Part shown: positions 1-19,901 of the stretch, in pieces
Layout of the letters: every line of letters begins with the position of its first letter
Position numbering within the stretch: the first letter of the stretch is position 1
IMG/VR virus record: IMGVR_UViG_2935054407_000001
Location: 32,001-96,000 of that record
Length of the DNA: 64,000 nt
Direction: 5' to 3' (one strand)
DNA from: a virus
Lineage: Duplodnaviria; Caudoviricetes
The notes under the pieces: model-generated
The model's database searches: none
What the model was told of the DNA's origin: nothing
The model's input: only the letters and a program-made list of their open reading frames with translations
Made by a program: the position numbers and the translations under genes

Positions 1-55
1 TAGGCCGGACAGGGTCACACGGTGCAACGGACTGCACGGGTGCCCGCAATGCAAG

Positions 56-379
56 ATGGATGCCGAGCTGGTCTCGATGCTCGCGAGTCCTAAAAAGGGA
101 ATCGCTCTCAAGTTCGGTGACCAAATTTCGAACGGTGCTCACGTGCTGGCCTACACCGGCATCCACAGCAGCACGAGGATCACACGCGCGGTTGCGCTGT
201 GCTGGTGTCCAACGCGGAAAGAGTTCGTGATCTGGACCATCGAATACGGATACGCCGACCAGGGCGAAGCCTGGTACGCACACAACGGCCACCGCGCGGG
301 ACAAGACCTCGCCTATGCCCTGCTGAGCTATACGCAGCAGGCCGGTCCCGGCGCCTCTCTCCCGAATTTCATCTACTAG
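56..379 (+). CDS. hypothetical early protein (start uncertain)
   Basis: 107-aa ORF; its stop codon overlaps the 5' arm of the hammerhead. Confidence 0.6.
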   Translation: MDAELVSMLASPKKGIALKFGDQISNGAHVLAYTGIHSSTRITRAVALCWCPTRKEFVIWTIEYGYADQGEAWYAHNGHRAGQDLAYALLSYTQQAGPGASLPNFIY

Positions 380-452
380 GCGAAACGCGCGTCTTTCACA
401 CCGGTAGGCGCGCGTCGCGTCGGGAGTCGTTACCCGATGCCTGATGAGCCAG
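376..452 (+). ncRNA. type II hammerhead ribozyme
   Basis: GGC-GAAA (379-385); stem III 385-394/406-415; GUC cleavage triplet 414-416; stem I 417-424/433-440; CUGAUGA 441-447; GCC 448-450 closes stem II. Confidence 0.9.
390..406 (+). promoter_or_regulatory. 17-bp oriented motif CGTCTTTCACACCGGTA, copy 1
   Basis: Perfect match to the consensus; lies in hammerhead stem/loop III. Confidence 0.8.
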
Positions 453-478
453 ACCACACAGAAAGAGGGCACAGACCC

Positions 479-829
479 ATGAGCAACACCGCTAAGCAGA
501 TCCAGGTTGGGACGCACGGCAAGGGCCTGCGGGCGCTGATTGAGGCCCTGGAGACCTGCACTCCCTTCAAGACGGCTGGTGCCTTTCAGGCCATGGCTGG
601 CGTGCCCTCCGGGACCGGCCGCATGCCGAAGGATGAGCGCGAGCGTTTCGAGACCGACCGACCGCAGATCACGTACACCGTTCTTTCGTACGCCACCCCG
701 ATTGCCTGGGTTCTGGAGAACGGAGAGACGTACGTCTCTGACACCTATTACTCACCCACGACGACCAAGCACCAGAGCCGTGTTCGCGTGTATCTGAACC
801 GCGCAAACGTCATTGACGAGGCTGCGTAA
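479..829 (+). CDS. small phage protein (SY-T-IA ... YS-TT-KHQ motif family)
   Basis: ATG 479 after ACACAGAAAGAGGG; motif pattern familiar from phage early genes. Confidence 0.75.
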   Translation: MSNTAKQIQVGTHGKGLRALIEALETCTPFKTAGAFQAMAGVPSGTGRMPKDERERFETDRPQITYTVLSYATPIAWVLENGETYVSDTYYSPTTTKHQSRVRVYLNRANVIDEAA

Positions 830-897
830 CGGTCGTGAGCGCTTCTGACATCGCCCGGAAATCCGGGCGGTGTTGGTGGCACGGCGAACGTGTCAGA
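830..897 (+). repeat. intergenic hairpin repeat A, copy 1
   Basis: 68 bp, near-identical to 1500-1567 (3 mismatches); long stem with G-U pairs. Confidence 0.9.
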
Positions 898-927
898 CCT
901 AAGAACATACACAGAAAGAGGGTTGTA

Positions 928-1497
928 ATGCTCACAGAGATCCGTGCCATCGCTACCGATGTTGCTCGCGAGATGGGTAACTGGACCATTCGCGACGGCT
1001 ACATGAACGGCCAGTTCTTCATCGCCGACGAGAACAAAGAGCTGTGCCTGATGTTCGATCTCACACACGAGACGGGCAGGCTCAGCATCAGTGCCTCGTA
1101 CCCGAAGAATTCCAGTGTGGTGCACGGCATCAAGGGCTACAGCATCCGCGTGTCTTACAAGCGCGGCGCGGTCGTGATCGCACGGGAGATCAAGCGGAGG
1201 TTGATGCCTGACTACCTCCGCGAGCTGGAGAGCGTTGTCACACGGATCGCCGCTCACGAGGCGGAGGAAAGGCGGCAGGCGACCATAGCGCAGACCGTCG
1301 CAACGGCGCTTGGTGTCGATTGCCCGGAGACCGTCCACCCATCCGGAGTCTATGTCCGTAGCGGCTGGTGCGGTCCGAAGGCGCCCGTTACACGCTCGGA
1401 ATTCCGCGTCATGTCCGGTAGCAGCGTGGCTATCGAGATCAAGACGGATGGTGAGGTAGCCGCAAAGATCGCCGAATTCCTTCGGACTCTTATGTAG
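928..1497 (+). CDS. hypothetical protein
   Basis: ATG 928 after ACACAGAAAGAGGG; flanked by the two repeat A copies. Confidence 0.8.
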   Translation: MLTEIRAIATDVAREMGNWTIRDGYMNGQFFIADENKELCLMFDLTHETGRLSISASYPKNSSVVHGIKGYSIRVSYKRGAVVIAREIKRRLMPDYLRELESVVTRIAAHEAEERRQATIAQTVATALGVDCPETVHPSGVYVRSGWCGPKAPVTRSEFRVMSGSSVAIEIKTDGEVAAKIAEFLRTLM

Positions 1498-1499
1498 TG

Positions 1500-1567
1500 C
1501 GGTCGTGAGCGCTTCTGACATCACCCGGATTTCCGGGCGGTGTTGGTGGCACGGCGAACGTGTCAGA
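1500..1567 (+). repeat. intergenic hairpin repeat A, copy 2
   Basis: Direct repeat of 830-897. Confidence 0.9.
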
Positions 1568-1591
1568 GCAACACGCAGAAAGGCGGGACAG

Positions 1592-2191
1592 ATGGGATCG
1601 ATTGGACTTCACCGCGAGCCTGGCATGACCGATCGGGAATTCTTCGAGAAGGAGTTCCCGAACATGCTCGGCAAGTATGGGCAGATCGTGGCCTGTGCTT
1701 CCAACCCCGCTGGTGGCGATTGGAACCGTGCTTTCTATGCGGCGGTCACCAACAACGATGACGCGTCGTATAAGCCGGGCGAGACGTGGGCGTTGGTCGT
1801 GCTGATGCGCAACGACCGTAAATCGTCGGGCGGGTGCAACTTCTACTACAAGGACTTGGACGAGACCATGGGGCCGGTTGAAAGCACCTGCCCGGACCGG
1901 ATTCTTGACCTCCTGTCACCGACCGAACATGCAGGGGCCACCAGGTGGCGAGAGCGCTGCCGTGCCCACAATGCCCGCCTGGACAAGGCGCGGAAGCTCA
2001 CCGACGGTCAGATCATCCGCTTCACCAACCCCATGCCCTTCGGTGAGCCGTATGGAGAGGCTCAGCGCTTCCGCTACCGGAAGGCGGGGCGTAAGTCGGT
2101 CCTTGAAGCGATCACCGATGACGGGGAATTCCGCTTCCGTGCCCGGATTCCCGGCTGGCGCGCAATGTCATTCGAGATCGAGAACAACTAG
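1592..2191 (+). CDS. DUF6927-like protein
   Basis: FYYKDLDETMGP..CPDRILDLLSPT..A..WRERC motif; SD AGAAAGGCGG. Confidence 0.65.
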   Translation: MGSIGLHREPGMTDREFFEKEFPNMLGKYGQIVACASNPAGGDWNRAFYAAVTNNDDASYKPGETWALVVLMRNDRKSSGGCNFYYKDLDETMGPVESTCPDRILDLLSPTEHAGATRWRERCRAHNARLDKARKLTDGQIIRFTNPMPFGEPYGEAQRFRYRKAGRKSVLEAITDDGEFRFRARIPGWRAMSFEIENN

Positions 2192-2207
2192 CAGAAAGAC
2201 GGTAGTG

Positions 2208-2465
2208 ATGGACATCCCCGCTCTCCTCGTACGCATGGCGCGCAGCGTTCCCCGGCACGACAATGCCCGAATGATTATGTGGACGGCACACGAGGCGGTG
2301 AACAACACGTCTGACCTGGTGGATGGTGCACGGGCAGCGCTGGCGTACGTGTCAACGCACATCGGCGATGCTCCCGGACAGTCCAGGGATGAGCTGCTAA
2401 ATGACGCGGTTGCGGTGCTCTCCCTACATCTGGCGCTGCACACCATCGCCGAAAAGTACAAGTAA
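2208..2465 (+). CDS. hypothetical protein
   Basis: ATG after CAGAAAGACGG. Confidence 0.7.
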   Translation: MDIPALLVRMARSVPRHDNARMIMWTAHEAVNNTSDLVDGARAALAYVSTHIGDAPGQSRDELLNDAVAVLSLHLALHTIAEKYK

Positions 2466-2481
2466 GGGAAAGGCGGGAGTA

Positions 2482-2796
2482 ATGCCAGAGCGGCGCAAGG
2501 CGACCACGAAATACACGCTCGTACAGCACAGCGGGAGCACATCGCATGCGGAATTCCGGCACGCGGTAGAAGTGCTCTCCGTCTCGACGCTCACGGAACA
2601 GGACAAGATCGAAAAGGTCGGCGGCCTGCTGTTCGAGAGCTGGGAGGAGGCGGACAACAGGGAGTACGAGGAGAACTACCCGCCGGGGGTTACCGGGCTC
2701 TACCCGCGCGTGCCCGGCACGTTCCGGACCGATCTGAAAATCGATGGGTTCAACCTCTACATCCCCGCTGCGAAGAACGACACGGAAGGCCAGTGA
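2482..2796 (+). CDS. hypothetical protein
   Basis: ATG after GAAAGGCGGG. Confidence 0.75.
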   Translation: MPERRKATTKYTLVQHSGSTSHAEFRHAVEVLSVSTLTEQDKIEKVGGLLFESWEEADNREYEENYPPGVTGLYPRVPGTFRTDLKIDGFNLYIPAAKNDTEGQ

Positions 2797-3110
2797 CCAT
2801 GCCTCTTACCGCCCCCGAAAAGCGAGCCATCAAGCGGGCTTACCGCTGTGTCGTGATGCTGAACGAGCACACGCCGGAATGGCGCGGAATGGTGGACAAG
2901 GACACCCTTGCCATGCATCACACGAGCCGCTGTGTGTTCGGCCAGGTGTTCGGCGACTTCAACGAAGGGATCGACGTGCTGTCCCTGCACGGTTGCGACG
3001 AACCGCAGCGCTACGGGCTGGATCTCGACGTGAGGAACGACGTCATGTACCCCGTGCTGGACACCGCCTGGCGGATCGTGCTTGACCACCTGGACGCGCG
3101 GTCGGCCTAG
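2793..3110 (+). CDS. hypothetical protein
   Basis: GTGA overlap with the upstream gene; CVFGQVFG motif. Confidence 0.75.
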   Translation: MTMPLTAPEKRAIKRAYRCVVMLNEHTPEWRGMVDKDTLAMHHTSRCVFGQVFGDFNEGIDVLSLHGCDEPQRYGLDLDVRNDVMYPVLDTAWRIVLDHLDARSA

Positions 3111-3186
3111 CGGATCCTCTGGTCCCCATGCCTGCCAAATATCGGGGGCGGGCATGGGCGGCCGGGGCGTCCGCTTGGACGATCAC
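3106..3186 (+). repeat. intergenic hairpin repeat B, copy 1 (loop AAATATCGGG)
   Basis: Arms CCTAGCGGATCCTC ... GGGGCGTCCGCT..G.CGATCAC shared with 4091-4172. Confidence 0.85.
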
Positions 3187-3213
3187 CACCACACACACAC
3201 AGAAAGGCGGGAG

Positions 3214-3468
3214 ATGGGAAGGCACAGCAGGAACCGATCGCCGTACCCGGCCAGCAGCACGACCCCTGACCGCTCACAGGTCACGGAATCTGAGAGCGAG
3301 GCTCTCGTCCGGCTCGCTGCTCTGGTCTGTCACAACATCGCTACCGGCTTCGCTCCGGAGCGGGCTGTGGAGGCGGCTCTCCGTTCCTTCGACGACCCCG
3401 AAAGCGTGGTCGAGCTGTGGGCAGCGGTCTGGGAGCGCATCAAATCTGAAGACACCGAAAGGCGGTAG
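3214..3468 (+). CDS. hypothetical protein
   Basis: ATG after ACACACAGAAAGGCGG. Confidence 0.7.
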   Translation: MGRHSRNRSPYPASSTTPDRSQVTESESEALVRLAALVCHNIATGFAPERAVEAALRSFDDPESVVELWAAVWERIKSEDTERR

Positions 3469-3472
3469 AACC

Positions 3473-3784
3473 ATGACCTACAACCACGCACGCATGACGG
3501 ACGCGGATCGCGCTAGGAACACCCGCACCATCACGAACAGGCTCATCCATGCATGGGAGATCATGAAGGCCACGGGTCCGGTTTCTGGCCCAGCCGACTA
3601 CTACACTGGGATGTCCACCGCGTACGAGGCGTTCACCGGCTGCAACCCCGTAGCGCTGTCGATGGCGCTGGACGACAACCGGAAGCGCCACGGCAATCTG
3701 TCGCTCTCCGATCGGGCTGACAAGCTGATCGAGTCCTTGTCTCTGGCCGAGGTCTTCCCCTACCTCAAGGACGGGGACGCGTGA
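3473..3784 (+). CDS. hypothetical protein
   Basis: ATG after GAAAGGCGG. Confidence 0.75.
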   Translation: MTYNHARMTDADRARNTRTITNRLIHAWEIMKATGPVSGPADYYTGMSTAYEAFTGCNPVALSMALDDNRKRHGNLSLSDRADKLIESLSLAEVFPYLKDGDA

Positions 3785-4095
3785 TGACTGCATACGAGAT
3801 CGCTGCTCGGGCCGCTTTCTTCGCCTCCCAGCGCGCGACACAGGCGACCGTGGCAGAGCTGCACAGGTGGGAGCGCGCGGCTCGGCGCTCTGGCAACCGC
3901 GAGCACGTCAAGGAGATCCGGCGCGAGGTGAGGCGCATTCGCGCTACCAAGCGGCTCTCTCTCATCAAGCACGGCGGCGCGTGGGCCTGCTTCGACAACC
4001 GCACGGGGTCAGTCTGCGAGACCTTCGCTTACCGCATGGACGGCGCGACCTACGTCGAGTACTGGAACGGCCAGTACCACAAGCACACGTCCTAG
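3781..4095 (+). CDS. hypothetical protein
   Basis: Start overlaps the upstream stop; 104 aa. Confidence 0.7.
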   Translation: MMTAYEIAARAAFFASQRATQATVAELHRWERAARRSGNREHVKEIRREVRRIRATKRLSLIKHGGAWACFDNRTGSVCETFAYRMDGATYVEYWNGQYHKHTS

Positions 4096-4172
4096 CGGAT
4101 CCTCCGATCACCGCGCGTCTTTCACACCGGTAGAGATGCGCGGCCGGTCGGGGCGTCCGCTGGGGCGATCAC
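4091..4172 (+). repeat. intergenic hairpin repeat B, copy 2; apical stem-loop carries the 17-bp motif (4116-4132)
   Basis: Same outer arms as 3106-3186; inner stem CCGCGCGTCT/AGATGCGCGG. Confidence 0.85.
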
Positions 4173-4202
4173 GACCAACACACACAGAAAGGCGGGAGAT
4201 CT

Positions 4203-4496
4203 ATGCGCTTCTCCTACATCAACGAGGACTACATGCGCGAGCGGTGGCCGGTCGGCTGCCGAGCACGGCTCAAGAGCCTTCCGGGGAACTCGACCACCCT
4301 GACGATCGCCCCGCACGCGGAGACGAACTCCCCCTACAACCTCCGCTACTCGACGCGGACCAAGAGCGGTCCGGCGGTCAACATCACCTACCCGAAGTAC
4401 TGGCGGAACCGCAAGGGCGGCTGGGTGTTCGCCGCAGCGCTCCGACTGATCGGTAAGTGCGCTGACGGTACGTGCAACCACGCGGAAAGGCGGTAG
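4203..4496 (+). CDS. hypothetical protein
   Basis: ATG after ACACACAGAAAGGCGG. Confidence 0.75.
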   Translation: MRFSYINEDYMRERWPVGCRARLKSLPGNSTTLTIAPHAETNSPYNLRYSTRTKSGPAVNITYPKYWRNRKGGWVFAAALRLIGKCADGTCNHAERR

Positions 4497-4502
4497 ATCC
4501 GC

Positions 4503-4610
4503 GTGCACTGTGACCGTTGCGGCCGAGAGCTGCGGGCCTGGCCGTTGGAGCGCGGAAGCCGTTGCAGCCCCAAGCGGTGGACGTACTGCATCAGGCCGAA
4601 GAGCGACTGA
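4503..4610 (+). CDS. 35-aa Cys-rich peptide MHCDRCG...CSPKRWTYCIRPKSD
   Basis: GTG after GAAAGGCGG; fills the gap; too short to appear in the ORF track. Confidence 0.6.
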   Translation: MHCDRCGRELRAWPLERGSRCSPKRWTYCIRPKSD

Positions 4611-4648
4611 GACTCCCCAACCGCACACAGAAAGGCGGTAGTTCCACC

Positions 4649-4918
4649 ATGCCTAAGATCCTGATCGCCACCGACAAGGCTCCGCAGAGCAGCGTCCCCA
4701 ACGTGCGCGGGATGAACTGGGTGGCCCGTCGCGCCGCCATCATCCGCGCGGCCTTCCACCTGGAGAGGCAGGAGCGGGCCGTGCGGGCGCTGATGGCGAT
4801 GACCTTCGACGGCGACGAGCGGATCAAGCTCAAGGCCCTGCTCCAGCAGATCCAGGCGGACATCCGGAGCATCCACGTCTACGCCAAGGCCGGTTATCCG
4901 TCTGTCCGGGAGATCTGA
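4649..4918 (+). CDS. hypothetical protein
   Basis: ATG after ACACAGAAAGGCGG. Confidence 0.75.
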   Translation: MPKILIATDKAPQSSVPNVRGMNWVARRAAIIRAAFHLERQERAVRALMAMTFDGDERIKLKALLQQIQADIRSIHVYAKAGYPSVREI

Positions 4919-5692
4919 GTGCGCGCCCGGTTTCTCTGTGGTGCTCCGGAGTTGAGTTGGGCCGAAGATCACGGCGACATCGGGCCGCTTTTCATCAGCT
5001 TCAACCGCATTTGCCGATTGAAGTTTCGGCCCATCGATGTCACCACGGATTTCGCTATCGACAGTGGCGGCTTCACACAGCTTTCCAATGGCGGTTGGCC
5101 GGACGGCTGCGAAGAGCCCTACATCGCGGCGATTCGCAGGCTCAAGCGCTTCATCTGGAGAGGCGGCCACCACCTTCTGTGGATCGCTCCGCAAGATTGG
5201 ATGTGCGAGGAAGAGCAGCTAGCCAACACTGGTCTTACGGTGCTCGAACACCAGAGACGCACCGTGCGGAACTTCGCCCGGCTCACTCAGCTTGCCCCCG
5301 ATCTTCCGTGGGCCATGGCTGTGCAGGGTGATACGCCGAGAGCCTATCTCCGCATTCTCGACATGTACGCAGACGCAGGAGTCGATCCCCTCGCACAGAA
5401 GATCGTTGGCGTCGGTTCCATCTGCCGAATTCAGCACACGGACAAGGCCGTCGAGATTATCGAGACCTTGCACGATGCCGGACTGCGGAAGCTACACGGA
5501 TTCGGACTGAAGACGGAAGGGCTCGCGAAGGTCGGGCATCTCCTCACCTCCGCCGATTCGATGGCCTGGTCTGAGCATGCCCGCAAGCAGAAGATCCACC
5601 TTGACGGGTGCTCGCATAAGCGGTGCGTCTCCTGCCCGAAATTCGCCAAGCAATGGCGAGACAACCTCATCAATCGCGGGCTCGCTGCCTAA
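4919..5692 (+). CDS. queuine tRNA-ribosyltransferase/DpdA-like (TGT-fold) protein
   Basis: Motifs DSGGF, QDWMCE, GVGS, LHGFG, SADSMAWS; C-terminal Cys cluster. Confidence 0.8.
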   Translation: MRARFLCGAPELSWAEDHGDIGPLFISFNRICRLKFRPIDVTTDFAIDSGGFTQLSNGGWPDGCEEPYIAAIRRLKRFIWRGGHHLLWIAPQDWMCEEEQLANTGLTVLEHQRRTVRNFARLTQLAPDLPWAMAVQGDTPRAYLRILDMYADAGVDPLAQKIVGVGSICRIQHTDKAVEIIETLHDAGLRKLHGFGLKTEGLAKVGHLLTSADSMAWSEHARKQKIHLDGCSHKRCVSCPKFAKQWRDNLINRGLAA

Positions 5693-5720
5693 TCGTTCAC
5701 ACAGAAAGACGGTAATAGTC

Positions 5721-6236
5721 ATGTCCTTCTACCCCTATGAGCTGTGCGTGACGCTCCGATCCCAGAACCCGGATGACACGGATGAGATGTCGGTTGATCT
5801 CCTGGCTGTCGAACTGGACGAGTTGAAGGCTGCGGTTCTCAGTACCTTCGGCGGTATCTACGTCGAGGTGGACACGGACGACGGCAACTGGGAAGGCGTC
5901 CAGGTGTCCGGGACCACCATTGAGCAGCTCTGGAAGCTGGCGAAGCTGGCCACCGAGTCTCGTGACGCGAACTGCTTCATGGCCTGGGCGGGCATCCTGC
6001 CGGGCGGGCTCGCGAGTCTTGACCCGGAAACGGCGATCAGGGACTTCCGTAGGGAGTTCGAGGGCGACTACGAAGACCTCGCTGAATATGGACACACCCT
6101 CATGGAGGACGAAATCCGGCACATGCCCATCCTGGACCAGTTCTTCAACTTCGCGGAGTACGGCAAGTACGTCGCCGCTGACCACCGGGTTGTCGAGCTG
6201 TCCACCGGCCGCATCGCCGTCTTTGGGAAGGGCTGA
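5721..6236 (+). CDS. ardA: ArdA-like antirestriction protein
   Basis: Acidic protein; C-terminus FEGDYEDLAEYG..LM...LDQFFNFAEYG...GRIAVF is typical of ArdA. Confidence 0.7.
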   Translation: MSFYPYELCVTLRSQNPDDTDEMSVDLLAVELDELKAAVLSTFGGIYVEVDTDDGNWEGVQVSGTTIEQLWKLAKLATESRDANCFMAWAGILPGGLASLDPETAIRDFRREFEGDYEDLAEYGHTLMEDEIRHMPILDQFFNFAEYGKYVAADHRVVELSTGRIAVFGKG

Positions 6237-6239
6237 GTC

Positions 6240-6614
6240 ATGGCTGATGGCATCCGCAAGAGCGACGGGGCGCGCGGCAAGCTGGTTGGTCCTGCTCCCT
6301 GGGGGCCTGAGGGGCACACCGTCTATGAGTGGAGCGACACTCAGCCGCGCTTTACCCGAGAGATCCTGCCGGATCACATGGTGGTCAACCCGGACGAGCC
6401 GAAGAACGGTCGATGGGGGCAGGTGGCAGAGCTGGCGGTGGCCACGGGCGGCGCAGCCTTGAAGCTTGGCGAGATCGCCGCGCTCTGCCTGGACGGCGGC
6501 TGGTACACCGAGACGGAGCTGGACGCCGTACGGCAGCTCGATCGGCTGGAGAATCTCGTCAAGCTGATGCGGAGCCGGGTGGAGGCGGCCCGGCGCACGC
6601 AACGCAACGCCTGA
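6240..6614 (+). CDS. hypothetical protein
   Basis: 124-aa ORF in the operon. Confidence 0.7.
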   Translation: MADGIRKSDGARGKLVGPAPWGPEGHTVYEWSDTQPRFTREILPDHMVVNPDEPKNGRWGQVAELAVATGGAALKLGEIAALCLDGGWYTETELDAVRQLDRLENLVKLMRSRVEAARRTQRNA

Positions 6615-6679
6615 TGTCTCGGCGGGGTTGACTCCTAGAATCGAGTAGACCTGGAGCCAACCCCGATCGGAGCCGAATC

Positions 6680-7015
6680 ATGGCGAATTCCCTGACGATG
6701 TATCTGCCCGTTTCAGCTATCGATGCAATGAGCGAAAAGGCGGAAGGAAGCGGGCTCACCCTGTCGTTCGTTGCATCGGCTCTTGTAGCCAGAGCGCTGA
6801 GGGATAAACTCCCCCCCGAGTTTCTCGACCTCCCGAAATTCGAGCGGGGTTTGAAGAAGCGCAATCAGAATGTCTACGTCCCTGATAGTGTTTGGACGGC
6901 TGACGGAGTCATTAAGACGGTTCCTGAAAATGAGCGCCCTAGGTTCGTCACGGCGCTGATGTACGCCTACTCCCGATGCCTGGTGGACGTACAGCTATCT
7001 GTAACAGTCACCTGA
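6680..7015 (+). CDS. putative ribbon-helix-helix DNA-binding protein
   Basis: Strand SLTMYLP then two helices (LSFVASALV); a second QNVYVP unit. Confidence 0.45.
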   Translation: MANSLTMYLPVSAIDAMSEKAEGSGLTLSFVASALVARALRDKLPPEFLDLPKFERGLKKRNQNVYVPDSVWTADGVIKTVPENERPRFVTALMYAYSRCLVDVQLSVTVT

Positions 7016-7039
7016 TACACGCACAGAAAGAGCAGCGGA

Positions 7040-7825
7040 TTGAGAACAAAGGAAGACATCGAGCGGCGGGTGAAGGCTTACCTTGCCAAGGCCGAATCTG
7101 CCGTCAAGCTCGGAAACATGGAAGAAGCGAAGCTGTTCTTCGGGGCGGTTTCCGAGATGGTCTATACCTATGACCTCGACGAAGCCGTTTTGCGGACAGA
7201 GAACAACGCCGGTAAGACGGAAATCACGATCTCTTCGCATCGTTTCCAAGTGTCGAACCGTGGCCAGCACGGACCAGAGCGGATCGAAGCGCTGTTCTCC
7301 TTCGTAGGCGCGATGAACTGCGAGGGGGTGTCCATTGGCTGCGCACGAAACACGTATGGACAGCCCATCGACTTTGAAGTCCTGGGACCTGCTGAGACAG
7401 TGGACCGGTTGAAGCTGTTGATCCCAATTCTGCTGTTGCAGATGGAGGACGCAGCTCGTCAGTCGGCGAAGAAGTTCCGCAAGGAACAGGAGATGTACTA
7501 CCTCAACCCTGCGAACTTGTCTCGCGCGGTGACCAAGTGGTTCAGATCGGTGCTCGTTGGCTACGGACGAGGCGTTGCCGCGAAGATCCAAGAGCGCATG
7601 GCCAAGACGTACGAAGAAGCCACGGAGGGATCGACGGCTGCTCTGGTCCTCTACGATCGCGCGACGGCACTGGAGGCCGCTCTCAAGGAGCGGTGGCCAA
7701 AGCTCCGCCCTTCTCGAACGCGCAAGCTCTACAGCGATGCCCTCCGCGAGGGCCAGCGGCTCGGCAAGCAAGCTGACCTGGGTGACGCCCGGATCGGCAG
7801 CGAGACGCGGGCCATTCCTCGATAG
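7040..7825 (+). CDS. DUF2786-family protein
   Basis: N-terminal V..YLAKAES......EEA..F...V.EM...YDL; C-terminal G...G..ADLG. Confidence 0.7.
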   Translation: MRTKEDIERRVKAYLAKAESAVKLGNMEEAKLFFGAVSEMVYTYDLDEAVLRTENNAGKTEITISSHRFQVSNRGQHGPERIEALFSFVGAMNCEGVSIGCARNTYGQPIDFEVLGPAETVDRLKLLIPILLLQMEDAARQSAKKFRKEQEMYYLNPANLSRAVTKWFRSVLVGYGRGVAAKIQERMAKTYEEATEGSTAALVLYDRATALEAALKERWPKLRPSRTRKLYSDALREGQRLGKQADLGDARIGSETRAIPR

Positions 7826-7901
7826 CCGGTTCCATGTCGGGGCGGCGTCCTACCATGGGGCGTCGCCCCGCTTCGTCCCCGAATACACACAAGGAGTAAG
7901 G

Positions 7902-8378
7902 GTGTCCGACAACGAGCACGGCGAGCTGGAAGCCTGGAGCAAGTACTACATTCTGGGCGACGACGAAGAGGCCGTTCTCCACTGGAGCACGAACGACGAC
8001 GGCGACACCGGCTACCCCGGCACCTTCGCGAGCGACAGTCGCTCCTTCCACAGGCGTGAGGACGCGACCGCGCTCCAGCAGGCCGTGAGACACGCGGGCG
8101 GTGGCTCCCGTCAGGGGATCGGCCACAACGTGCACGTCTACATCAACGGCGAGGAGTACAAGGGCGGCAAGGACTGCCAGCCGGAGCCCTCTGCTCCTGC
8201 CCCGCTTTCGGCTGAGTTCGTGATGGCTATGGCTGGTGCCCTGGTCGCGGGGAAGACCGGCGACGGCACGGCCATGCTGAACGCTCTCCGCGAGATCAGC
8301 CCGGAGGACCGGGAGCACCTGCTGTGGATGTGCGAGCAGGTCATAGCCGGAATCGAGCAGTTGAGAGAGGACGACTAG
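7902..8378 (+). CDS. hypothetical protein
   Basis: GTG after ACACACAAGGAG, preceded by a GC hairpin at about 7838-7870. Confidence 0.7.
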   Translation: MSDNEHGELEAWSKYYILGDDEEAVLHWSTNDDGDTGYPGTFASDSRSFHRREDATALQQAVRHAGGGSRQGIGHNVHVYINGEEYKGGKDCQPEPSAPAPLSAEFVMAMAGALVAGKTGDGTAMLNALREISPEDREHLLWMCEQVIAGIEQLREDD

Positions 8379-8572
8379 TGAGCAGCGAGATGCGCGTCAG
8401 GATCGTAGAGACGACGGTTCCCTGTCCCGAGTGCGGTAAGCCCGTCTGCAACCTGTGCGCGTTCAACCAGATGTGCCAGCACTGCAAGAACCCGCTCGAT
8501 GGCGAGACCCTACAGCGGGCGGAAGACGAGCTGGAAGCGATGTTCAGGAACGAGGCGCAGAGTGAGCAGTGA
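8378..8572 (+). CDS. small zinc-ribbon protein
   Basis: CPEC, CNLC, CQHC. Confidence 0.65.
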   Translation: MSSEMRVRIVETTVPCPECGKPVCNLCAFNQMCQHCKNPLDGETLQRAEDELEAMFRNEAQSEQ

Positions 8573-8939
8573 CAAGCCTTTGGTGGAGGTCGAAGTCGCC
8601 GACCCCATGGCGGGCGACACTGAGCCGTCCATCCGCTACACCACCCGAAATCGCGTAGCTCCAGGCATGTCGCAGGGTGGGCACGTCAGCGCGGAGACGG
8701 CGCGCGCTCTGATCACGGCACTTCGGTACGGGCTCCAGATGATCGAAGAGCGGAAGCCCAAGAAGCCGAAGGACGACGTACCGCGCTGTGAGGATGACGG
8801 CTGGGTGCTGGAGGCCAGCGAGGACGCTACCGGCAAGATCCTCTCGTGCCCGCGATTGAGATGCGGGTTCGTCTGGGAGGTGCCGGGACAGGCAACGGAA
8901 GAGCAGTGGAACAAGGCATGGGAAGCGGGGCGCGTCTAG
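8562..8939 (+). CDS. hypothetical protein
   Basis: Overlapping operon gene. Confidence 0.65.
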   Translation: MSSDKPLVEVEVADPMAGDTEPSIRYTTRNRVAPGMSQGGHVSAETARALITALRYGLQMIEERKPKKPKDDVPRCEDDGWVLEASEDATGKILSCPRLRCGFVWEVPGQATEEQWNKAWEAGRV

Positions 8940-9223
8940 TGAAGAAGATCCACCGTAGGCACATCACGGAGGCCCTCGGTAACGCCGGTATCGATCACAC
9001 CGCCGAAATTCTCAACTCCCACGAGTCGCCCACCGGCCGGGTTGGATTCGGCATCGAATTCAAGTCCTACGGAGACGCCACCAAGTTCTTCGTCGGCCTG
9101 GGAATGTTCCTTTACGACGACGCAGACGAAGAACTTGCTTACGAACTGGCGGGCGCTGTGGCGCTGGTAAACACAGCCAGGACCACGATCTTCTTCTTCC
9201 CCGGCTGGGAGCTGGAGGACTGA
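8939..9223 (+). CDS. hypothetical protein
   Basis: TAGTG translational coupling. Confidence 0.7.
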   Translation: MKKIHRRHITEALGNAGIDHTAEILNSHESPTGRVGFGIEFKSYGDATKFFVGLGMFLYDDADEELAYELAGAVALVNTARTTIFFFPGWELED

Positions 9224-9621
9224 TGTCTGAGAAGAACGAGGTGACGGCCGAGGAACTAGCTGCGCTCGACGCCGTGTGCAAGGAAACCGGCCTGGTGGAA
9301 GGGTGGGAGTACTTCAACCTGTTCCGCAAGCGCGGCAACCCGGACATTCAGGTGGTCGGTCCGTTCAACTGGCCGCACCGGATCCCGCGTCCGAACGTCA
9401 AGCTCGTACGCCGGAAGAAGGTCACCAGCTACGGGAAGTTCGAAGCAGTCCAATTCGACGTGAACGGTGACGCTATCGAGGACACGCCCTTTCATGCGTT
9501 CGTGCGCTGGATCGCATCTCTGGACGATCCGGAAAACGCGGAAGAGCGGCTCGGCGTAACGCCGTCCGAGATCATCGCCAAGGCCACCGCCATAGTGAAA
9601 GACGCGGAGAACAACGAGTGA
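9223..9621 (+). CDS. hypothetical protein
   Basis: TGATG coupling; SD GGAGG. Confidence 0.75.
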   Translation: MSEKNEVTAEELAALDAVCKETGLVEGWEYFNLFRKRGNPDIQVVGPFNWPHRIPRPNVKLVRRKKVTSYGKFEAVQFDVNGDAIEDTPFHAFVRWIASLDDPENAEERLGVTPSEIIAKATAIVKDAENNE

Positions 9622-9640
9622 GCCGAAGGGTGCTCATCTG

Positions 9641-10243
9641 ATGGACGCCATAGACCGGGAACACGCGATCTACGCGGCGGAGACCACTTCCAACTGCCCC
9701 AAATGCGATACGAGCAAATTCAGCATCGTCCCCAATTCTCCGCGCGCATTCTGCGAGCCCTGCGGCTACACGTGGGTACTCGGGTCGGAGCTGTACTCCT
9801 GTGCCTGTGCGAAGTTCATCGGCAACAACGACCAGGCCATCATGCACATCCGCGAAAACGGCGGCTGTGAGACCTGCCTGGGCACTGGCGAGGCCACCCC
9901 GATGGGCGGGGCGCACGGTCACTGCACATCGTGCGGCGGCTCGGGGCGGGGCTACAACGGCATAGAGGAGACCGTGACACTCACGGTGACGCTCAGGGTT
10001 CACAAGAACCCATCGGCCGAACCTGCTCTCGGTGTCGATGACCAGCCTGCCGAGTTCATCGCAAAGGAGTTCGCGGATCGTGTGCGCCTGGCCTTACAGG
10101 ACGAGATCAAAGAACCCGTTCTCGAACGTGTCCTCGTAGGCACGCTGAGGCAGGGTAGCGGCTCCTTCACCCTGTACGACGGCAGGGTGGCGCGCGTGGA
10201 AGTGACCGCGAACAGGGTCCGAGTGGAGGACGCAGCGCGATGA
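9641..10243 (+). CDS. Cys-rich protein with DnaJ-like CxxCxGxG motifs
   Basis: CPKC, CEPC, CETCLGTG, CTSCGGSG. Confidence 0.65.
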   Translation: MDAIDREHAIYAAETTSNCPKCDTSKFSIVPNSPRAFCEPCGYTWVLGSELYSCACAKFIGNNDQAIMHIRENGGCETCLGTGEATPMGGAHGHCTSCGGSGRGYNGIEETVTLTVTLRVHKNPSAEPALGVDDQPAEFIAKEFADRVRLALQDEIKEPVLERVLVGTLRQGSGSFTLYDGRVARVEVTANRVRVEDAAR

Positions 10244-10263
10244 CGTACTACGACAAGGAGTAA

Positions 10264-10521
10264 GTGATGGGCCACGAGCTGCACGTGACGACGTGCTACA
10301 ACCCCGTTTGCCGGAAGGTCTTCGACTTCGATCCCGAGACGGTCAATTCGGTCTTGGTCGATCCGGAAACCGGTCTTCCACCGGACACGGATCCAGAGAC
10401 GCGCACGCCGACGCGCACGCCGACGCCGGAGGAGCTGGCGCGGTCGGAGCGGATGCCGATCTGCCCTGAATGCGCTAACAAGATGCGTCGGAGAATCGCT
10501 CGTGAGCAGAAGCAGGGCTGA
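10264..10521 (+). CDS. small zinc-binding protein
   Basis: CYNPVC ... CPEC; SD AAGGAG. Confidence 0.7.
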   Translation: MMGHELHVTTCYNPVCRKVFDFDPETVNSVLVDPETGLPPDTDPETRTPTRTPTPEELARSERMPICPECANKMRRRIAREQKQG

Positions 10522-10593
10522 GTGAGCGCCTTTGTCGCCCGAATTCGGGGCGGGCGGCATTGGGGTCTACTCAGGTCATCGAAAGGAGCTGCT

Positions 10594-10752
10594 ATGGGCA
10601 ATCACTATGAGGTGTCCATCGAGGTCGAAGGTAGGCGCATCGACATCGCGCAAGTTCATGACGATCTGGAAGCCAAGCGCATGGGTGCCAACATCGCACA
10701 ATCCTACAAGCCCGAAGTTCGTGAGTGCCGCTGCGACGGCATTCTCTTCTGA
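10594..10752 (+). CDS. hypothetical protein
   Basis: ATG after GAAAGGAG. Confidence 0.6.
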   Translation: MGNHYEVSIEVEGRRIDIAQVHDDLEAKRMGANIAQSYKPEVRECRCDGILF

Positions 10753-10767
10753 TCAGGGAGAACTGAT

Positions 10768-11088
10768 ATGACCGAACAGCCTGAACAGCGCATCATCGAA
10801 TCCGTTAGCCGGAAGGAGGATGTCTCGGAGGAGGACGCTAAGCGCATTCTTGAGGCGATCTATTCGGGTAGTCAGTTGCGATGCGAGACCCTCCGCAAGT
10901 CTGGTTACGCCTTCGGAGACGACGTGAGAAAGGAGGTGTGTGTTACCTCCTTCGTCTGCCCGATTCTTCAGACGCCGCGCGTTGCCGTCGAGTGCTGGAG
11001 CGGGACCAACAAGTGGACCCGCGACTTCGCCAATCAAGAAGCTGCGGATGCCTACGCCGATAACGAGATGGTTCGTCTCGGGATTTAG
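10768..11088 (+). CDS. hypothetical protein
   Basis: SD GGGAG. Confidence 0.7.
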   Translation: MTEQPEQRIIESVSRKEDVSEEDAKRILEAIYSGSQLRCETLRKSGYAFGDDVRKEVCVTSFVCPILQTPRVAVECWSGTNKWTRDFANQEAADAYADNEMVRLGI

Positions 11089-11098
11089 GAGAACTTAT

Positions 11099-11719
11099 AT
11101 GGGCGCTGGAACATCAACGCCGGGCAGGAACGTCGTCGAGATGTACGACAGCGGCATGAGCATCAACGAGTGGGACTGGTGGAAGACGAACTACATCAAG
11201 AACATGGAGCGGATAACGCTCGGCGAGGCGAAGGACGACGAGAAGGAGTTCTGGGAGACGGCTGTCTTCTACATCCGTGAGGATGGCTCGAAGGTTCTTT
11301 CCCCCGCGCTCAGGCTTCGCGCCAGGCCGATTTTGAAGAAGAACTTCGAGCCGGGCGATCGCGTTTACGTATGCTTCGAGGAGCTGGAGAGCGGCCAACC
11401 CTACGTGCATAACGGTGAGGTGCTGTCCTTCGAGTACAACCTGTTCGAGGGTCTCACCCGATATACTCTGACCATCTTTCCCCGCGAATCCACGAATGAC
11501 CCGATTCCGGAGAGCTGGAACGGCACGTTGCTCCTCTCCAGTGACTCTCCGATTCGCAGTAGTCAGCTCACTAGAGGAACGTGGGCGTGGATTGACTCGC
11601 ACACGCTGGACGTGGGAGTGAGCGGGGATGTCTTCGTGACACCGTACGGCGAGGACCCTGGCGTCACCGACGCCATCGCCTCCCGCGTTATCGCGATCAA
11701 AGAGAGGGTGAGCGCATGA
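11099..11719 (+). CDS. hypothetical protein
   Basis: ATG after AGGAG. Confidence 0.7.
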   Translation: MGAGTSTPGRNVVEMYDSGMSINEWDWWKTNYIKNMERITLGEAKDDEKEFWETAVFYIREDGSKVLSPALRLRARPILKKNFEPGDRVYVCFEELESGQPYVHNGEVLSFEYNLFEGLTRYTLTIFPRESTNDPIPESWNGTLLLSSDSPIRSSQLTRGTWAWIDSHTLDVGVSGDVFVTPYGEDPGVTDAIASRVIAIKERVSA

Positions 11720-12087
11720 GCGAGAGTTTGATCCCTGGCCGCGTCGATCTGCCGAGGCAGCACGAGGGCGAGACCATCGACGGCACGGTGTTCGTGATCA
11801 TCGGTCCCAACCTGATCAGCACCATCCGCGAGAGCGACATGCCTGCCTGGCTCGCGCGGCACTGGGAGCACGAAGAGGAGTTCGCCATCTACGCCGTGAA
11901 CACCGTCCTGACTGCCCATGATGTTGGGCCGCTTATCGCGGTGTCGTTCAGCTTCACGGGAGGTCGCCCCGGATACAAGGGCAAGGTGATGCTCGGCCCC
12001 CACTACATGCGGAGGCGAAGCCCGTACCTGGACGAGAACGGCAAGCCAGTCGAGATCGTCTTCGACCCCAAATCCGCTGACGCGTAG
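11716..12087 (+). CDS. hypothetical protein
   Basis: ATGA overlap. Confidence 0.7.
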   Translation: MSESLIPGRVDLPRQHEGETIDGTVFVIIGPNLISTIRESDMPAWLARHWEHEEEFAIYAVNTVLTAHDVGPLIAVSFSFTGGRPGYKGKVMLGPHYMRRRSPYLDENGKPVEIVFDPKSADA

Positions 12088-12110
12088 CTGGAGAGCAGGT
12101 AACGCAAGGC

Positions 12111-12566
12111 ATGCACGTCATCATCACTAACTGGGACGATTTCCCCTTAGATGCTCCCTTTGACAAGGTCCTTCGCGGCGACTTCTCCACCTACGCCTGC
12201 TTCTGCCGCACGGAGCTGAAGTCCAGCATCGAAGCCGTCATTCATGCAGCGGAAAACGATCTTTGCACCGCCTGTCTCGGGCGCGGATCGGTCCGGCTGG
12301 TGCCGTCGCGAGAGCACTTCTGCGGCAAGTGCAACGCTACGGGTACGCGTGACGCTGAGCTGGCCAACGAGCTGGGACAGGGCGAGGTCGAGCGGACCTT
12401 CGACGAGGAACTGCTACGGAAGATCATCGCTGACAACGGCGGTCAGGTGCCGTCACGTACGGAGATCTTCAACCAGGTTCGTCCGCTGCTTCCGGAGGCT
12501 GAGCCTGTGCACATCGCTATGCGGATCGGTGGCCTCCTGCGGAAGATCGCCGAAGACAGAGGCTAG
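12111..12566 (+). CDS. protein with CxxCxGxG zinc motifs
   Basis: CTACLGRG, CGKCNATG; resembles part of 9641-10243. Confidence 0.65.
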   Translation: MHVIITNWDDFPLDAPFDKVLRGDFSTYACFCRTELKSSIEAVIHAAENDLCTACLGRGSVRLVPSREHFCGKCNATGTRDAELANELGQGEVERTFDEELLRKIIADNGGQVPSRTEIFNQVRPLLPEAEPVHIAMRIGGLLRKIAEDRG

Positions 12567-12604
12567 CGATACGATCCTCGGTGCGCAGGACGATCGGGGA
12601 CGGT

Positions 12605-12856
12605 ATGACAGGTCGCAGGGTATACAGGACCGAGACGGGCCAGCCGCCAGCCGACGAGGGCCGGGACATCATCCCTACCCGAGACGAACGCTGGCGGCCT
12701 AGCTCCCTGGACGATCCTGATCCTCCGGGCAAGCTGGACAGTCACATCCGCCTCTCCCCCGCCGTTCTTCAGCACGTCCTTCGGGAGTGTGAGGCCAGGG
12801 GCGTGCGGTTGAGTGATTGCACGTTTGCCGAAGACGGCTCTGTCATCATCCCGTGA
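12605..12856 (+). CDS. hypothetical protein
   Basis: Last + gene; its stop abuts the terminator. Confidence 0.55.
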   Translation: MTGRRVYRTETGQPPADEGRDIIPTRDERWRPSSLDDPDPPGKLDSHIRLSPAVLQHVLRECEARGVRLSDCTFAEDGSVIIP

Positions 12857-12889
12857 AAAAGCCCCGGCTTCGCGCCGGGGCTTTTTTTT
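12856..12889. terminator. bidirectional intrinsic terminator
   Basis: AAAAAGCCCCGGC-TTCGC-GCCGGGGCTTTTTTTT where the two arms converge. Confidence 0.92.
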
Positions 12890-12930
12890 GCTCGAACACG
12901 GTTCCGCTGCATTTGGCTGTAAGCCAGTTA

Positions 12931-14385
12931 CTAGGCTTCCCTGACGATCTCGCCGGAGATCACGCCCATTTGCCGGAGTACGTCGTCGGCGGGCACGGCC
13001 TCGGGGAGCGCCTGGGCCTGCTGCGCGGCCTTCTCTCCGAAGAGCTGGCCGACGAGTCCGGTACCGGCCGCCGCGCGTCCGCTGGCCTTGATGGTCATGG
13101 AGAAGCCCTCGTTCTCGGCGGCCACCTTCTTCTCAATCATCTTGTCGAGCAGCTCCAGCTCACGTGACAGGTTAGGGTCTGCGTAGCCGCCTTCCTGCTG
13201 CTCAGCGGCATACATCGTGGCGACACGCTGGGCCTGGATCTCGATTCCCATCTCCCGGATTCGCTGAAGCTGCTCAACCGTGCGGGCCTCCACGGGTAGC
13301 TTGTAGGCGCATGTGGAGCCGGGATCAAACTCCTGACAGCTCGGGCTCAGGAAGCAGGTGTCACAGAGTCGCTGGCTCTCTCCGGATACGTTGATGAGCC
13401 CGATTTTCCGGGTGGTGAAGTTGCCGTCTTCGCCGACAACGCGCTGTTCCACCTCTTCGATCCCGAATCCGGGGGCGATTTTCGCGGCTTCACGGCGTCG
13501 GGGAGTTGCTAGCCTTTTCCGCGCTTCGGAGGGTGGGTTATCAACTGTTTCGTCGTCATTTTCCGCGAAACTCCAACCACGCGATTCAGTGTCCACAGTA
13601 ACTAGCTTTCTTCCGTTCAAATGGTCGATGTACTGCTGCCAGCTCCACAGCGATAGGCGTAGAAGCTCGTTGGAGTCGCCGGACTCGATCAGCTCGGGAT
13701 CGAAGCCGTTCTTGGTGAAGAGCTGCCGGTGGCGCTTCCTGGCCTGCTCGGCGTATTTCTTGGGGTATCTCTTCAGCGCGTTTCCGGTCCAGACGATCGT
13801 GTCGTTGTACTGGGCTGGGCTGAGCCATGAGGTGCTGGAGACCGAGTCCCACGGCAGCGCCTCCAGGACCTCGGGCTTGGTCATGGCCACGCCGTGCAGC
13901 TTGACGCCGGAGCGTGCGAGGCTGCGCAGTACCGGCATGATGTCCCGGCCGCCCACGCTCGTCTGAGGGACGCCTACACGCCCGTGTGCGTCGGCCAGCT
14001 CGCGCAGGTGCGGAAGCCCGTCTTCGGCGTGCCAGATCGGCAGGTACTTGTCTCCCGCGATTGTGGCGATGTCGGCCGGTGCTTGGGGGACGTCCCACTC
14101 GGTGACCAGGGAGACGCGGTCAAGGTTGGTCTCGACGAAGGACTGATACTTCGCGGCCAAATCCGGGAGATCGTACTTTCCGGGATTGGCTCTGACGCTG
14201 TACCCGCCGGAGTCGAGAAGGATTTCCGTGTCTTCCCCGAATTTCGTGGACAGGAGCCACGGGCGGGAGAATTTGACTCGTCTGGATAGTCCGATGAAGG
14301 AGAGCGAGACGTGGCGCACTCCCTGGCTGTGCAGGAGGATGCGCCACGATGGAATCTCGGCCCCCGCGTAGTAGAGGCGGGTCAT
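12931..14385 (-). CDS. TGT/DpdA-like TIM-barrel protein with a C-terminal Zn-binding/helical extension
   Basis: LLDSGGYS, PIWH, LHGVA, DSVSSTSW; CDTC..C..C near the C-terminus. Confidence 0.7.
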   Translation of the reverse strand: MTRLYYAGAEIPSWRILLHSQGVRHVSLSFIGLSRRVKFSRPWLLSTKFGEDTEILLDSGGYSVRANPGKYDLPDLAAKYQSFVETNLDRVSLVTEWDVPQAPADIATIAGDKYLPIWHAEDGLPHLRELADAHGRVGVPQTSVGGRDIMPVLRSLARSGVKLHGVAMTKPEVLEALPWDSVSSTSWLSPAQYNDTIVWTGNALKRYPKKYAEQARKRHRQLFTKNGFDPELIESGDSNELLRLSLWSWQQYIDHLNGRKLVTVDTESRGWSFAENDDETVDNPPSEARKRLATPRRREAAKIAPGFGIEEVEQRVVGEDGNFTTRKIGLINVSGESQRLCDTCFLSPSCQEFDPGSTCAYKLPVEARTVEQLQRIREMGIEIQAQRVATMYAAEQQEGGYADPNLSRELELLDKMIEKKVAAENEGFSMTIKASGRAAAGTGLVGQLFGEKAAQQAQALPEAVPADDVLRQMGVISGEIVREA

Positions 14386-14400
14386 GGTGAGTGTGCCTGA

Positions 14401-16176: not shown

Positions 16177-16187
16177 TTTCGGCTCTC

Positions 16188-16628
16188 CTAGGCGGCGTTC
16201 GCTTCGAGCTGGCGCGTGCGGTTCACGGTGGTTTCCAGGTCGGCCCAGGCTTTGAGTCCGGGACGGTGCCGCAGGTGGGCATAGCGGGGGTGGCTGTAGA
16301 GCAGGGTGGGCTGGCCTGCGTCGAACAGGGCGGCGCAGATCGTGGGATCGGGGTCAATGACGAGGTCGAGCGGTCCGGCGGCGCGGAGCTGGGCAACCTG
16401 GTAGAGCCGCTCGGTGTGCATCGGGTGGCCGGGGCGCGGTGTGCTGATGGAGACGTGGCCGGTGATGTGTTCCAGGCGCAGCCACTCGATGTCGGCCGGG
16501 TCGTCGGCCAGCAGGTGCACGCGGTAGCCCTCCTTCATGGCGGCATACAGCGTCCGGCCGTGGTCGCTGGGCTGACGGCTGATGGGGTCGCGGAGAATGC
16601 CCCATATGGTCATGGCGCAGGCGATCAC
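16188..16628 (-). CDS. HAD-fold-like protein, motif I degenerate
   Basis: TIWGIL in place of DxDG; LVIDPDP resembles motif IV. Confidence 0.5.
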   Translation of the reverse strand: MIACAMTIWGILRDPISRQPSDHGRTLYAAMKEGYRVHLLADDPADIEWLRLEHITGHVSISTPRPGHPMHTERLYQVAQLRAAGPLDLVIDPDPTICAALFDAGQPTLLYSHPRYAHLRHRPGLKAWADLETTVNRTRQLEANAA

Positions 16629-17575: not shown

Positions 17576-17613
17576 ATACCCAGATTACCTTTTTGGCCTT
17601 TTAGCTCGTTAGC

Positions 17614-17645
17614 GCAGAAAGCGCCGGGCGACCGGCGCTTTCTGC
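17614..17645. terminator. intrinsic terminator-like hairpin
   Basis: GCAGAAAGCGCCGG-GCGA-CCGGCGCTTTCTGC. Confidence 0.75.
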
Positions 17646-17909
17646 TTAGAGGTCTCGTTCCTCTACATGTCGCAGGATGACGGCTCCTTCGTTGGCCATC
17701 ATCTTGATTCGGTATCGCATCTCTGGCCAGTCTCTATGTTCCGCGAATCCGTAGGCGAGGACGATACGAATACCGCGTCCGTGGATCCCGCGCAGATTTT
17801 CCGGACCACTGACGTAGACAGCGCGCACGGCCGGGTGCTGGAGGTCACGGATCACGAAGTCAGCTATGCGCCGCTCTCGCGCGAAAACCAAGTAGGTCGG
17901 GTTGTTCAT
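17646..17909 (-). CDS. hypothetical protein
   Basis: 87-aa ORF coupled to the upstream gene. Confidence 0.65.
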   Translation of the reverse strand: MNNPTYLVFARERRIADFVIRDLQHPAVRAVYVSGPENLRGIHGRGIRIVLAYGFAEHRDWPEMRYRIKMMANEGAVILRHVEERDL

Positions 17910-18247: not shown

Positions 18248-18402
18248 CAGGCAGGGCTCCCCACGGTGGTGTTCTGGCCGTGGGCCGCCTTGAGGTCGTC
18301 CAGCTCCCGGTAGGCGTTGTCGCGGGCCGCCTGCGCGTACAGCAGGTCGTAGGTCAGATTGTCAACAATGCGCTCGTGCTTTGATCTCCGGATGAACCAC
18401 AT
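18247..18402 (-). CDS. 51-aa hypothetical protein MWFIRRSKHER...
   Basis: SD AGGAG plus ATG; fills the gap; not in the ORF track. Confidence 0.65.
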   Translation of the reverse strand: MWFIRRSKHERIVDNLTYDLLYAQAARDNAYRELDDLKAAHGQNTTVGSPA

Positions 18403-18411
18403 GTCGTTCTC

Positions 18412-18906: not shown

Positions 18907-18926
18907 AGTGGTTCGGGTGTTCCTTC

Positions 18927-19900: not shown

Positions 19901-19901
19901 G

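Follow-up and report, generated by a model that had tools for sequence, protein, structure and literature searches.

The DNA analysed here, referred to as the window, is a stretch of 64,000 nucleotides that corresponds to bases 32001-96000 of the 108,967-bp virus record IMGVR_UViG_2935054407_000001 (G000). Near its left end, between two small genes read on the + strand, lies a complete type II hammerhead ribozyme motif, HH5 (378-458, +; Rfam RF02276). Positions are those of the window unless marked as genome positions. The upstream gene, gK (143 amino acids, genome 31948-32379, + strand, taken from the open reading frame (ORF) list), reaches into the window with its 3' part (1-379). It has no Pfam or PHROG match and no counterpart in the sister phage G001, which is described below. 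Its stop codon UAG (377-379) runs into the ribozyme, the last G being the first base of stem II. The downstream gene, gL (479-829, +, 116 amino acids), matches phrog_32689, a family with no assigned function, and likewise has no counterpart in G001. It starts with the ATG at 479 and is preceded by the ribosome-binding site (RBS) GAAAGAGGG at 461-469, a member of the operon-wide ACACAGAAAGGCGG family (D1). Gene calls, the start of gK included, are heuristic and were made from ORFs, third-position G+C content and RBS matches.

The 5' strand of stem II (GGC, 379-381, positions 11.3-11.1) pairs over 3 bp with GCC at 448-450 (10.1-10.3). Core residues G12 A13 A14 (382-384) lead into stem III (385-394/406-415), which has 10 bp with one wobble (U392-G408), the closing pair A15.1-U16.1 and a loop of 11 nt (395-405). 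At the tip of stem III lies GTCTTTCACACCGG (391-404), a 14-nt motif specific to the phage. The trinucleotide G414-U415-C416 sets C17 at position 416, and the scissile bond is predicted, from its placement relative to the core, between C17 (416) and G1.1 (417). Stem I (417-424/433-440) has 8 bp, one wobble (G419-U438) and the 8-nt loop AGUCGUUA (425-432), and is followed by the core segment C3 U4 G5 A6 U7 G8 A9 (CUGAUGA, 441-447). Within loop I, G426-U427-C428 are complementary to GAC in the 3' tail (452-454), which would give a pseudoknot of 3 bp. A cut at 416/417 would leave a leader of 62 nt on the 3' product.

Stems I and III are closed by loops and stem II opens to the flanks in the minimum-energy fold, in the centroid fold and in the Rfam alignment, which is the type II topology. 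Standard pairs adjoin the core in all three stems (G448-C381, G417-C440, A385-U415); such pairs at 10.1-11.1, 1.1-2.1 and 15.1-16.1 are the screening rule of Perreault 2011. A GAA core with A385-U415 and a position 17 other than G (C416) are present, as RF02276 requires. A first-pass annotation, made from the letters of the window, had already placed GGC-GAAA, stems I and III, GUC and CUGAUGA at these coordinates, with GCC closing stem II, and every coordinate is correct base for base. It had put the cut after C416, which agrees with the core placement as a prediction from sequence, and the element just past the upstream stop and about 60 nt ahead of the next start, where 62 nt were found. The pairing it suggested between GUC of loop I and GAC at 452-454 is present as complementarity, and corresponds to the pseudoknot described for type II hammerheads in the available text of PMC3088659.

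The whole window was scanned against all 4227 Rfam families. In this search, whose hammerhead part the first-pass annotation had called for, HH5 was the sole match at gathering level (RF02276, Hammerhead_II, 378-458, +; 42.4 bits against a gathering score of 37, E 2.8e-5), and loosening the threshold to E up to 1 added only two unrelated sub-threshold matches. RF02276 passes its cut-off in none of 14 control genomes. The minimum-energy and centroid structures of the + strand are exactly the three-stem hammerhead (-35.5 kcal/mol, z -2.47, with 4 of 200 shuffles as good), whereas the complementary strand does not adopt the hammerhead fold (z -0.21, 79 of 200 shuffles as good). The assignment to the + strand, originally argued from the G-U pairs, is borne out.

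HH5 is the last of five + strand copies that the RF02276 search located within 5.3 kb of G000, an array that had been missed in the first-pass annotation. The other four lie upstream: HH1 (genome 27112-27183, 27.6 bits), HH2 (genome 27874-27953, 37.2 bits), HH3 (genome 28568-28644, 33.5 bits) and HH4 (genome 30581-30651, 49.2 bits); HH5 occupies genome 32378-32458. A sixth match, on the - strand (14.2 bits, E 0.26), was regarded as noise. The co-oriented copies are separated by one to three ORFs. Each begins 0-6 nt past a stop codon (in HH4 and HH5 the codon extends into the element), and each is followed on its 3' side by the RBS ACACAGAAAGGCGG. The leaders after the predicted cuts of HH1 to HH5 measure 74, 70, 75, 68 and 62 nt. 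G001 has three hammerheads, which correspond in place to HH1, HH3 and HH4; they lie at 5675, 6453 and 8710 and score 27.9, 37.1 and 42.8 bits, respectively. A covariance model built from the array itself gives HH5 94.4 bits, a score that is high by construction; applied to G000 1-96000 and G001 1-20000, it found no further complete hammerhead, only stem-III-like hairpins. HH2, HH3 and HH4 carry one extra nucleotide (U, U and C, respectively) between A9 and 10.1, with the rest of the core intact; HH5 does not. This variant is not met in the part of the text of Perreault et al. 2011 that was available (PMC3088659).

Covariation was counted in eight copies from two phages, the five of G000 and the three of G001. 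They were parsed from the core outward and pairs were counted by hammerhead numbering; a model-fitted alignment had stem I of three rows out of register and was not used. All 13 core positions (CUGANGA, GAA, A15.1-U16.1 and C17) are intact in all eight copies. Stem I is paired in 56 of 56 cells, with changes on both sides at each of its seven positions, and stem III in 69 of 72 cells, with such changes at three of nine positions. Stem II is paired throughout (24/24 cells) and shows changes on both sides at one of three positions, the middle pair, where G-C is replaced by C-G in two copies. When the 3' partner was slid by one base as a control, the paired cells fell to 16 of 56 in stem I and 11 of 72 in stem III. 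The partners in loop I and tail vary yet remain complementary (UGGU/ACCG, GAUC/GAUC, GGU/ACC, UGGUU/GACCA, GUC/GAC), over 3 bp in HH5 and 3-5 bp in the other seven copies. Because all eight copies belong to one lineage, as paralogues or orthologues, the compensatory events are not independent. The stems have nevertheless diverged freely around an untouched core, which is the pattern predicted by selection for catalysis. The Rfam model, the fold, the sequence and the covariation agree with the original call of a canonical type II hammerhead.

HH5 is probably, at roughly 80%, an active type II hammerhead that processes the polycistronic RNA. We infer that the genes around it are transcribed as one RNA, that this RNA is cleaved in vivo and that the new ends are protected. 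The + strand transcript would fold into three stems around the CUGAUGA/GAA core, aided by the short pseudoknot of loop I and 3' tail, and would cut itself after C416. In hammerhead chemistry the 2'-OH of C17 attacks the adjacent phosphate, which yields a 2',3'-cyclic phosphate upstream and a 5'-OH downstream. The gK message would accordingly end in the 10-bp hairpin of stem III plus one C bearing the cyclic phosphate, an end that 3' exonucleases would attack poorly. On the gL message, the new 5'-OH would sit on the first base of the stem I hairpin (8 bp), 62 nt before the start codon; by what is generally known of bacterial mRNA decay, RNases that depend on the 5' end would act on it poorly. 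Of the hammerhead permutations, only type II gives both new ends a closed hairpin. A long transcript would in this way be turned into mRNAs of one or a few genes, whose stability and translation would be uncoupled from those of their neighbours. As the stop codon of gK overlaps stem II, the terminating ribosome would have to clear the site before the ribozyme can fold, which may delay cleavage relative to the translation of gK.

Several observations weigh against an active, processing HH5. Its predicted pseudoknot has only 3 bp; most type II examples of Perreault et al. have at least 4 bp, and in their construct a reduction from 6 to 4 bp lowered the rate about 20-fold (PMC3088659). HH5 has no positional orthologue in G001, nor have the two genes that flank it. 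Four distant relatives with DNA polymerases about 40% identical were searched over their whole length with RF02276, and none has any match; the array is thus not a deep feature of the lineage. The label "early" for the surrounding operon rests solely on gene order and orientation. Finally, a 2019 review still described as unproven what hammerheads of bacteria and phages do biologically (PMC6765202). In favour of activity, a report from 2021 describes three predicted type II hammerheads near phage-like genes of Desulfovibrio vulgaris that cleave in vivo (PMC8782182).

The short pseudoknot also speaks for an alternative in which HH5 is a hammerhead by descent that cleaves at no useful rate in the cell. 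Stems III and I, both stable hairpins, would then serve as intercistronic stabilisers, as pause sites or as terminators that need no factor; alternatively, the element would be a recombination joint between gene cassettes. Hairpins that carry the same loop motif and lack a hammerhead core do fill other gaps of the operon (genome 27474-27510 and 29798-29832). HH5 is itself a mosaic: the 5' arm and loop of its stem III are identical over 22 nt to 4112-4133, and its 3' half is 85% identical to copy c of G001. Of the 22 + strand genes of genome 26931-37692, tblastn finds a match in G001 for 12; the other 10 include gK and gL, both neighbours of HH2 and the gene preceding HH4. A plain hairpin, however, needs no CUGANGA, GAA or C17, and 13 core positions that stay intact in eight of eight copies while the stems diverge freely are expected only under selection for catalysis. 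We regard this explanation as unlikely.

Still less probable is that neighbouring hammerheads excise the RNA between them and that the ends are ligated, by the reverse reaction or by an RtcB-type ligase, into circular or spliced RNAs of gene length. By established chemistry, 5'-OH and 2',3'-cyclic phosphate ends are substrates for RtcB-type ligation, and a gene for a protein with the HAD domain of "Swiss Army Knife" RNA-repair proteins lies 6 kb upstream (genome 20367-20870). Excision and ligation were raised for clustered hammerheads by Perreault et al., who, in the text available, did not detect the products (PMC3088659). No ligase gene was identified in G000. As for a chance resemblance in GC-rich intergenic DNA without function at the RNA level, the heptamer CTGATGA alone is indeed ordinary, with 10 copies on each strand of the genome, and the weight of the evidence is in the whole arrangement. 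A score above the gathering value, against 0 of 14 control genomes, five copies on the same strand in equivalent slots, covarying stems and three copies kept in G001 refute chance for HH5, as far as computation can show.

Natural type II hammerheads with a pseudoknot between loop I and the 3' tail were described by Perreault et al. 2011, who tested clusters from three bacteria in vitro, where prophage hammerheads of such clusters cleaved; one set cleaved in E. coli (PMC3088659). HH5 shares with RF02276 type II ribozymes the core, the three-stem layout with open stem II and the bacterial or phage setting, and may share the pseudoknot. It differs from those in the same text in the 3-bp pseudoknot and in the long stem III (10 bp) capped by the phage-specific 14-nt motif; the extra nucleotide of its sister copies HH2-4 is a further difference from the family. 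The closest setting is that of the prophage clusters of Agrobacterium tumefaciens, Azorhizobium caulinodans and Clostridium scindens, in which co-oriented ribozymes also set off small uncharacterised genes, singly or in short blocks, and were also proposed to cut a long phage transcript into mRNAs of gene length (PMC3088659). G000 fits that description, with five copies in 5.3 kb of the + strand of a genome that has phage hallmark genes and an integrase. Compared with what is available on those clusters, the five copies of G000 are set tightly between a stop codon, overlapped in HH4 and HH5, and a conserved RBS, and the operon mixes hammerheads with two other types of structured cassette. Hammerhead arrays between phage genes have been known since 2011, and the array that ends in HH5 is a further example.

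G000 has a G+C content of 63% and a CheckV completeness of 100%. Matches to PHROGs show the phage to be a myovirus; they include tail sheath, baseplate wedge and tape measure proteins, a DNA polymerase, a helicase, a ribonucleotide reductase and a queuine tRNA-ribosyltransferase homologue. The last (12931-14385, -; phrog_887, E 6.6e-61) suggests a possible 7-deazaguanine modification of the phage DNA. An integrase gene (genome 6848-8485) and the provirus label of G001 indicate that G000 is temperate. A DNA similarity search of 50,697 deposited phages gave no match. With the DNA polymerase as query, IMG/VR yielded a single close relative, G001 (84% amino-acid identity), and the remaining 79 loci kept from this search are at most 43% identical. 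G001 is a provirus record of 90,284 bp, syntenic with G000 at about 70-85% DNA identity. Protein queries with gL and with the DUF932 gene gE found no relatives in IMG/VR, nor did gE against GTDB genomes; relatives of G000 were reachable only via the DNA polymerase.

Leftward genes of G000 end at about 25.0 kb and are followed by about 1.9 kb with no convincing ORF (genome 25003-26930). Part of this interval is conserved in G001; it is rich in local hairpins and has, at 25020-25080, AT-rich repeats of the AATTAATT type. From genome 26931 to about 44.5 kb extends a + strand block of small genes, mostly of no known family; DUF932, DUF7178 and DUF6927 are the exceptions. That this block is an early operon is a reasonable inference. 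Scans for sigma-70-type promoters and for terminators over genome 24900-32000 gave 2 sites against 1.8 in shuffles and 5 against 5.2, respectively, so that neither kind of site is commoner than in shuffles. The sigma-70-like site at genome 26038-26066 falls within this background, and the scan yielded no promoter for the operon above it. Compared with G001 (L202), the operon is a mosaic whose break points coincide with structured spacers, as if these were joints at which gene cassettes can be exchanged. An unusually long conserved translation-initiation region, ACACACAGAAAGGCGG, stands before most operon genes and is also found in G001; copies in the window include 1569-1591, 3193-3215, 3448-3470, 4178-4200, 4476-4498 and 4621-4643, and there are others. 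Two leftward genes near the control region encode proteins related to RNA. The HAD-domain gene named above (genome 20367-20870, -; L203 8367-8870) matches PF18143 at 31.7 bits, and a second gene (genome 22763-23128, -; L203 10763-11128) has a phage ProQ C-terminal-like domain (PF24203, 31.6 bits). The two products could bear on the ends or hairpins that the ribozymes make.

The 14-nt motif at the tip of stem III recurs in G000, where GTCTTTCACACCGG has 9 exact copies and 8 with one mismatch. In the window, exact or near copies occur on the + strand at 391-404 and 4117-4130, and on the - strand at 19886-19899, 24158-24171, 25854-25867, 39567-39580, 42609-42622 and 53269-53282. Upstream of the window they lie at genome 16927, 27125, 27484, 27887, 28581, 29807 and 31309 (+) and at 23455 and 23491 (-). 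Copies are on the + strand within the + operon and on the - strand within the blocks of - strand genes, and all 13 copies of the 9-mer CTTTCACAC run in the direction of local transcription. Some copies form the tip of a long hairpin whose stem shows compensatory change; others are unpaired, lie just upstream of starts or lie inside ORFs. The motif is dispensable for the ribozyme, since it is absent from HH4 and from copy c of G001. In place of the G000 motif, G001 carries GTCT[AC]CC[TA]AACCGG(GA) at 11 syntenic sites. The asymmetric G000 form cGTCTTTCACACCGG occurs on both arms of the genome, its counterpart in G001 being cGTCT[AC]CC[TA]AACCGGGA. Such a concerted swap at dispersed sites, coding ones included, points to a probable co-evolving trans-acting factor.

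The loop motif could be a stoperator-like site, a phage-specific promoter or the site of an RNA-binding protein. For the motif taken alone, the closest described analogue is the stoperator of Cluster A mycobacteriophages, described in the available text as asymmetric sites of 13-14 bp, 20-30 per genome, oriented with transcription and varying in motif between relatives (PMC6550527). The G000 motif is likewise asymmetric, 14 nt long, spread over many genome sites, oriented with transcription and different between related temperate phages. In contrast to the stoperator phages in that text, G000 is a myovirus with no repressor identified, and several of its motif copies sit in RNA hairpin loops, a ribozyme stem among them, a location not described there for stoperators. 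A search of the divergent control regions for a palindromic operator built from the motif gave nothing convincing, and no cognate repressor was recognised with Pfam and PHROGs among 10 ORFs near the divergent control region. Scanning IMG/VR with the 14-mer returned at least 112 stretches, nearly all with single matches, as chance predicts for a 14-mer; two records, L024 and L079, have two matches each.

Two further cassette classes occupy the same slot between stop codon and RBS as the hammerheads, and both are long irregular hairpins of about 70 nt. Class B (about 69 nt) is present on the + strand at 829-897 and 1499-1567, with 96% identity between the two, and has a third copy in G001 (L202 10858-10926). 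Its 25 predicted pairs include many G-U pairs, and none shows changes on both sides among the three sequences; a spurious GTG start is called inside it by the ORF lists. Class C lies on the + strand at 3103-3191 and 4088-4177, with two copies in G001 (L202 ~12140-12225 and ~14058-14150). Of its 26 predicted pairs, six have changes on both sides, and its hairpin has conserved flanks and an exchangeable apical hairpin. In copy C2 the apical hairpin carries the same loop motif as stem III of the hammerhead. Over 700-5000, Rfam at E up to 10 gave no family match to either class, only sub-threshold noise resembling miRNAs and snoRNAs; at that sensitivity, assignments to twister, twister-sister, pistol, hatchet, HDV-like and hairpin ribozymes found no match and were rejected. 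Exact-pattern scans found both classes only in G001.

In phage T7, intercistronic RNase III sites cut the polycistronic transcript of the early genes into stable single-gene mRNAs with hairpin ends. The hammerheads of G000 resemble these sites in their working, as intercistronic RNA structures that are cut and keep hairpin ends. T7 uses a protein enzyme of the host and long double-stranded hairpins, whereas the G000 hammerhead is an RNA predicted to cut itself; the long hairpins of classes B and C look more like the T7 type. The simplest reading of both classes is that they are RNase III-type sites; possibly they are new self-cleaving motifs. Other hairpins occur in the operon. The two stand-alone ones with the loop motif of stem III and no hammerhead core (L203 15474-15510 and 17798-17832) are accompanied by a second recurrent small hairpin, CGAUGUGACRUCG, in two other gaps (genome 29840-29855 and 31275-31290). 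Both kinds may be decayed hammerheads or separate modules.

Tentatively, and with considerable doubt, the hammerheads may be seen as one module of a composite intercistronic toolkit, in which the loop motif would be served by a co-evolving factor, either a repressor that binds DNA in the manner of stoperators or a protein that binds the RNA loop, and classes B and C would be further processing elements. If this were true, a single 80-nt spacer would combine processing by a ribozyme with silencing or regulation specific to the phage. If the loop motif binds a phage-specific factor, a regulatory site would be housed in a loop of the ribozyme that is free in sequence, and if classes B and C turn out to be processing elements, the operon would offer a natural collection of RNA insulators that can replace one another.

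HH5 is one more well-formed example in a class whose role, according to the 2019 review, had not yet been demonstrated (PMC6765202). Its value is that of a test case, with five intact ribozymes in one phage, three in its sister and a tight architecture from stop codon to RBS. The prediction that follows for this phage is that the type II topology would leave protective terminal hairpins on both daughter mRNAs.

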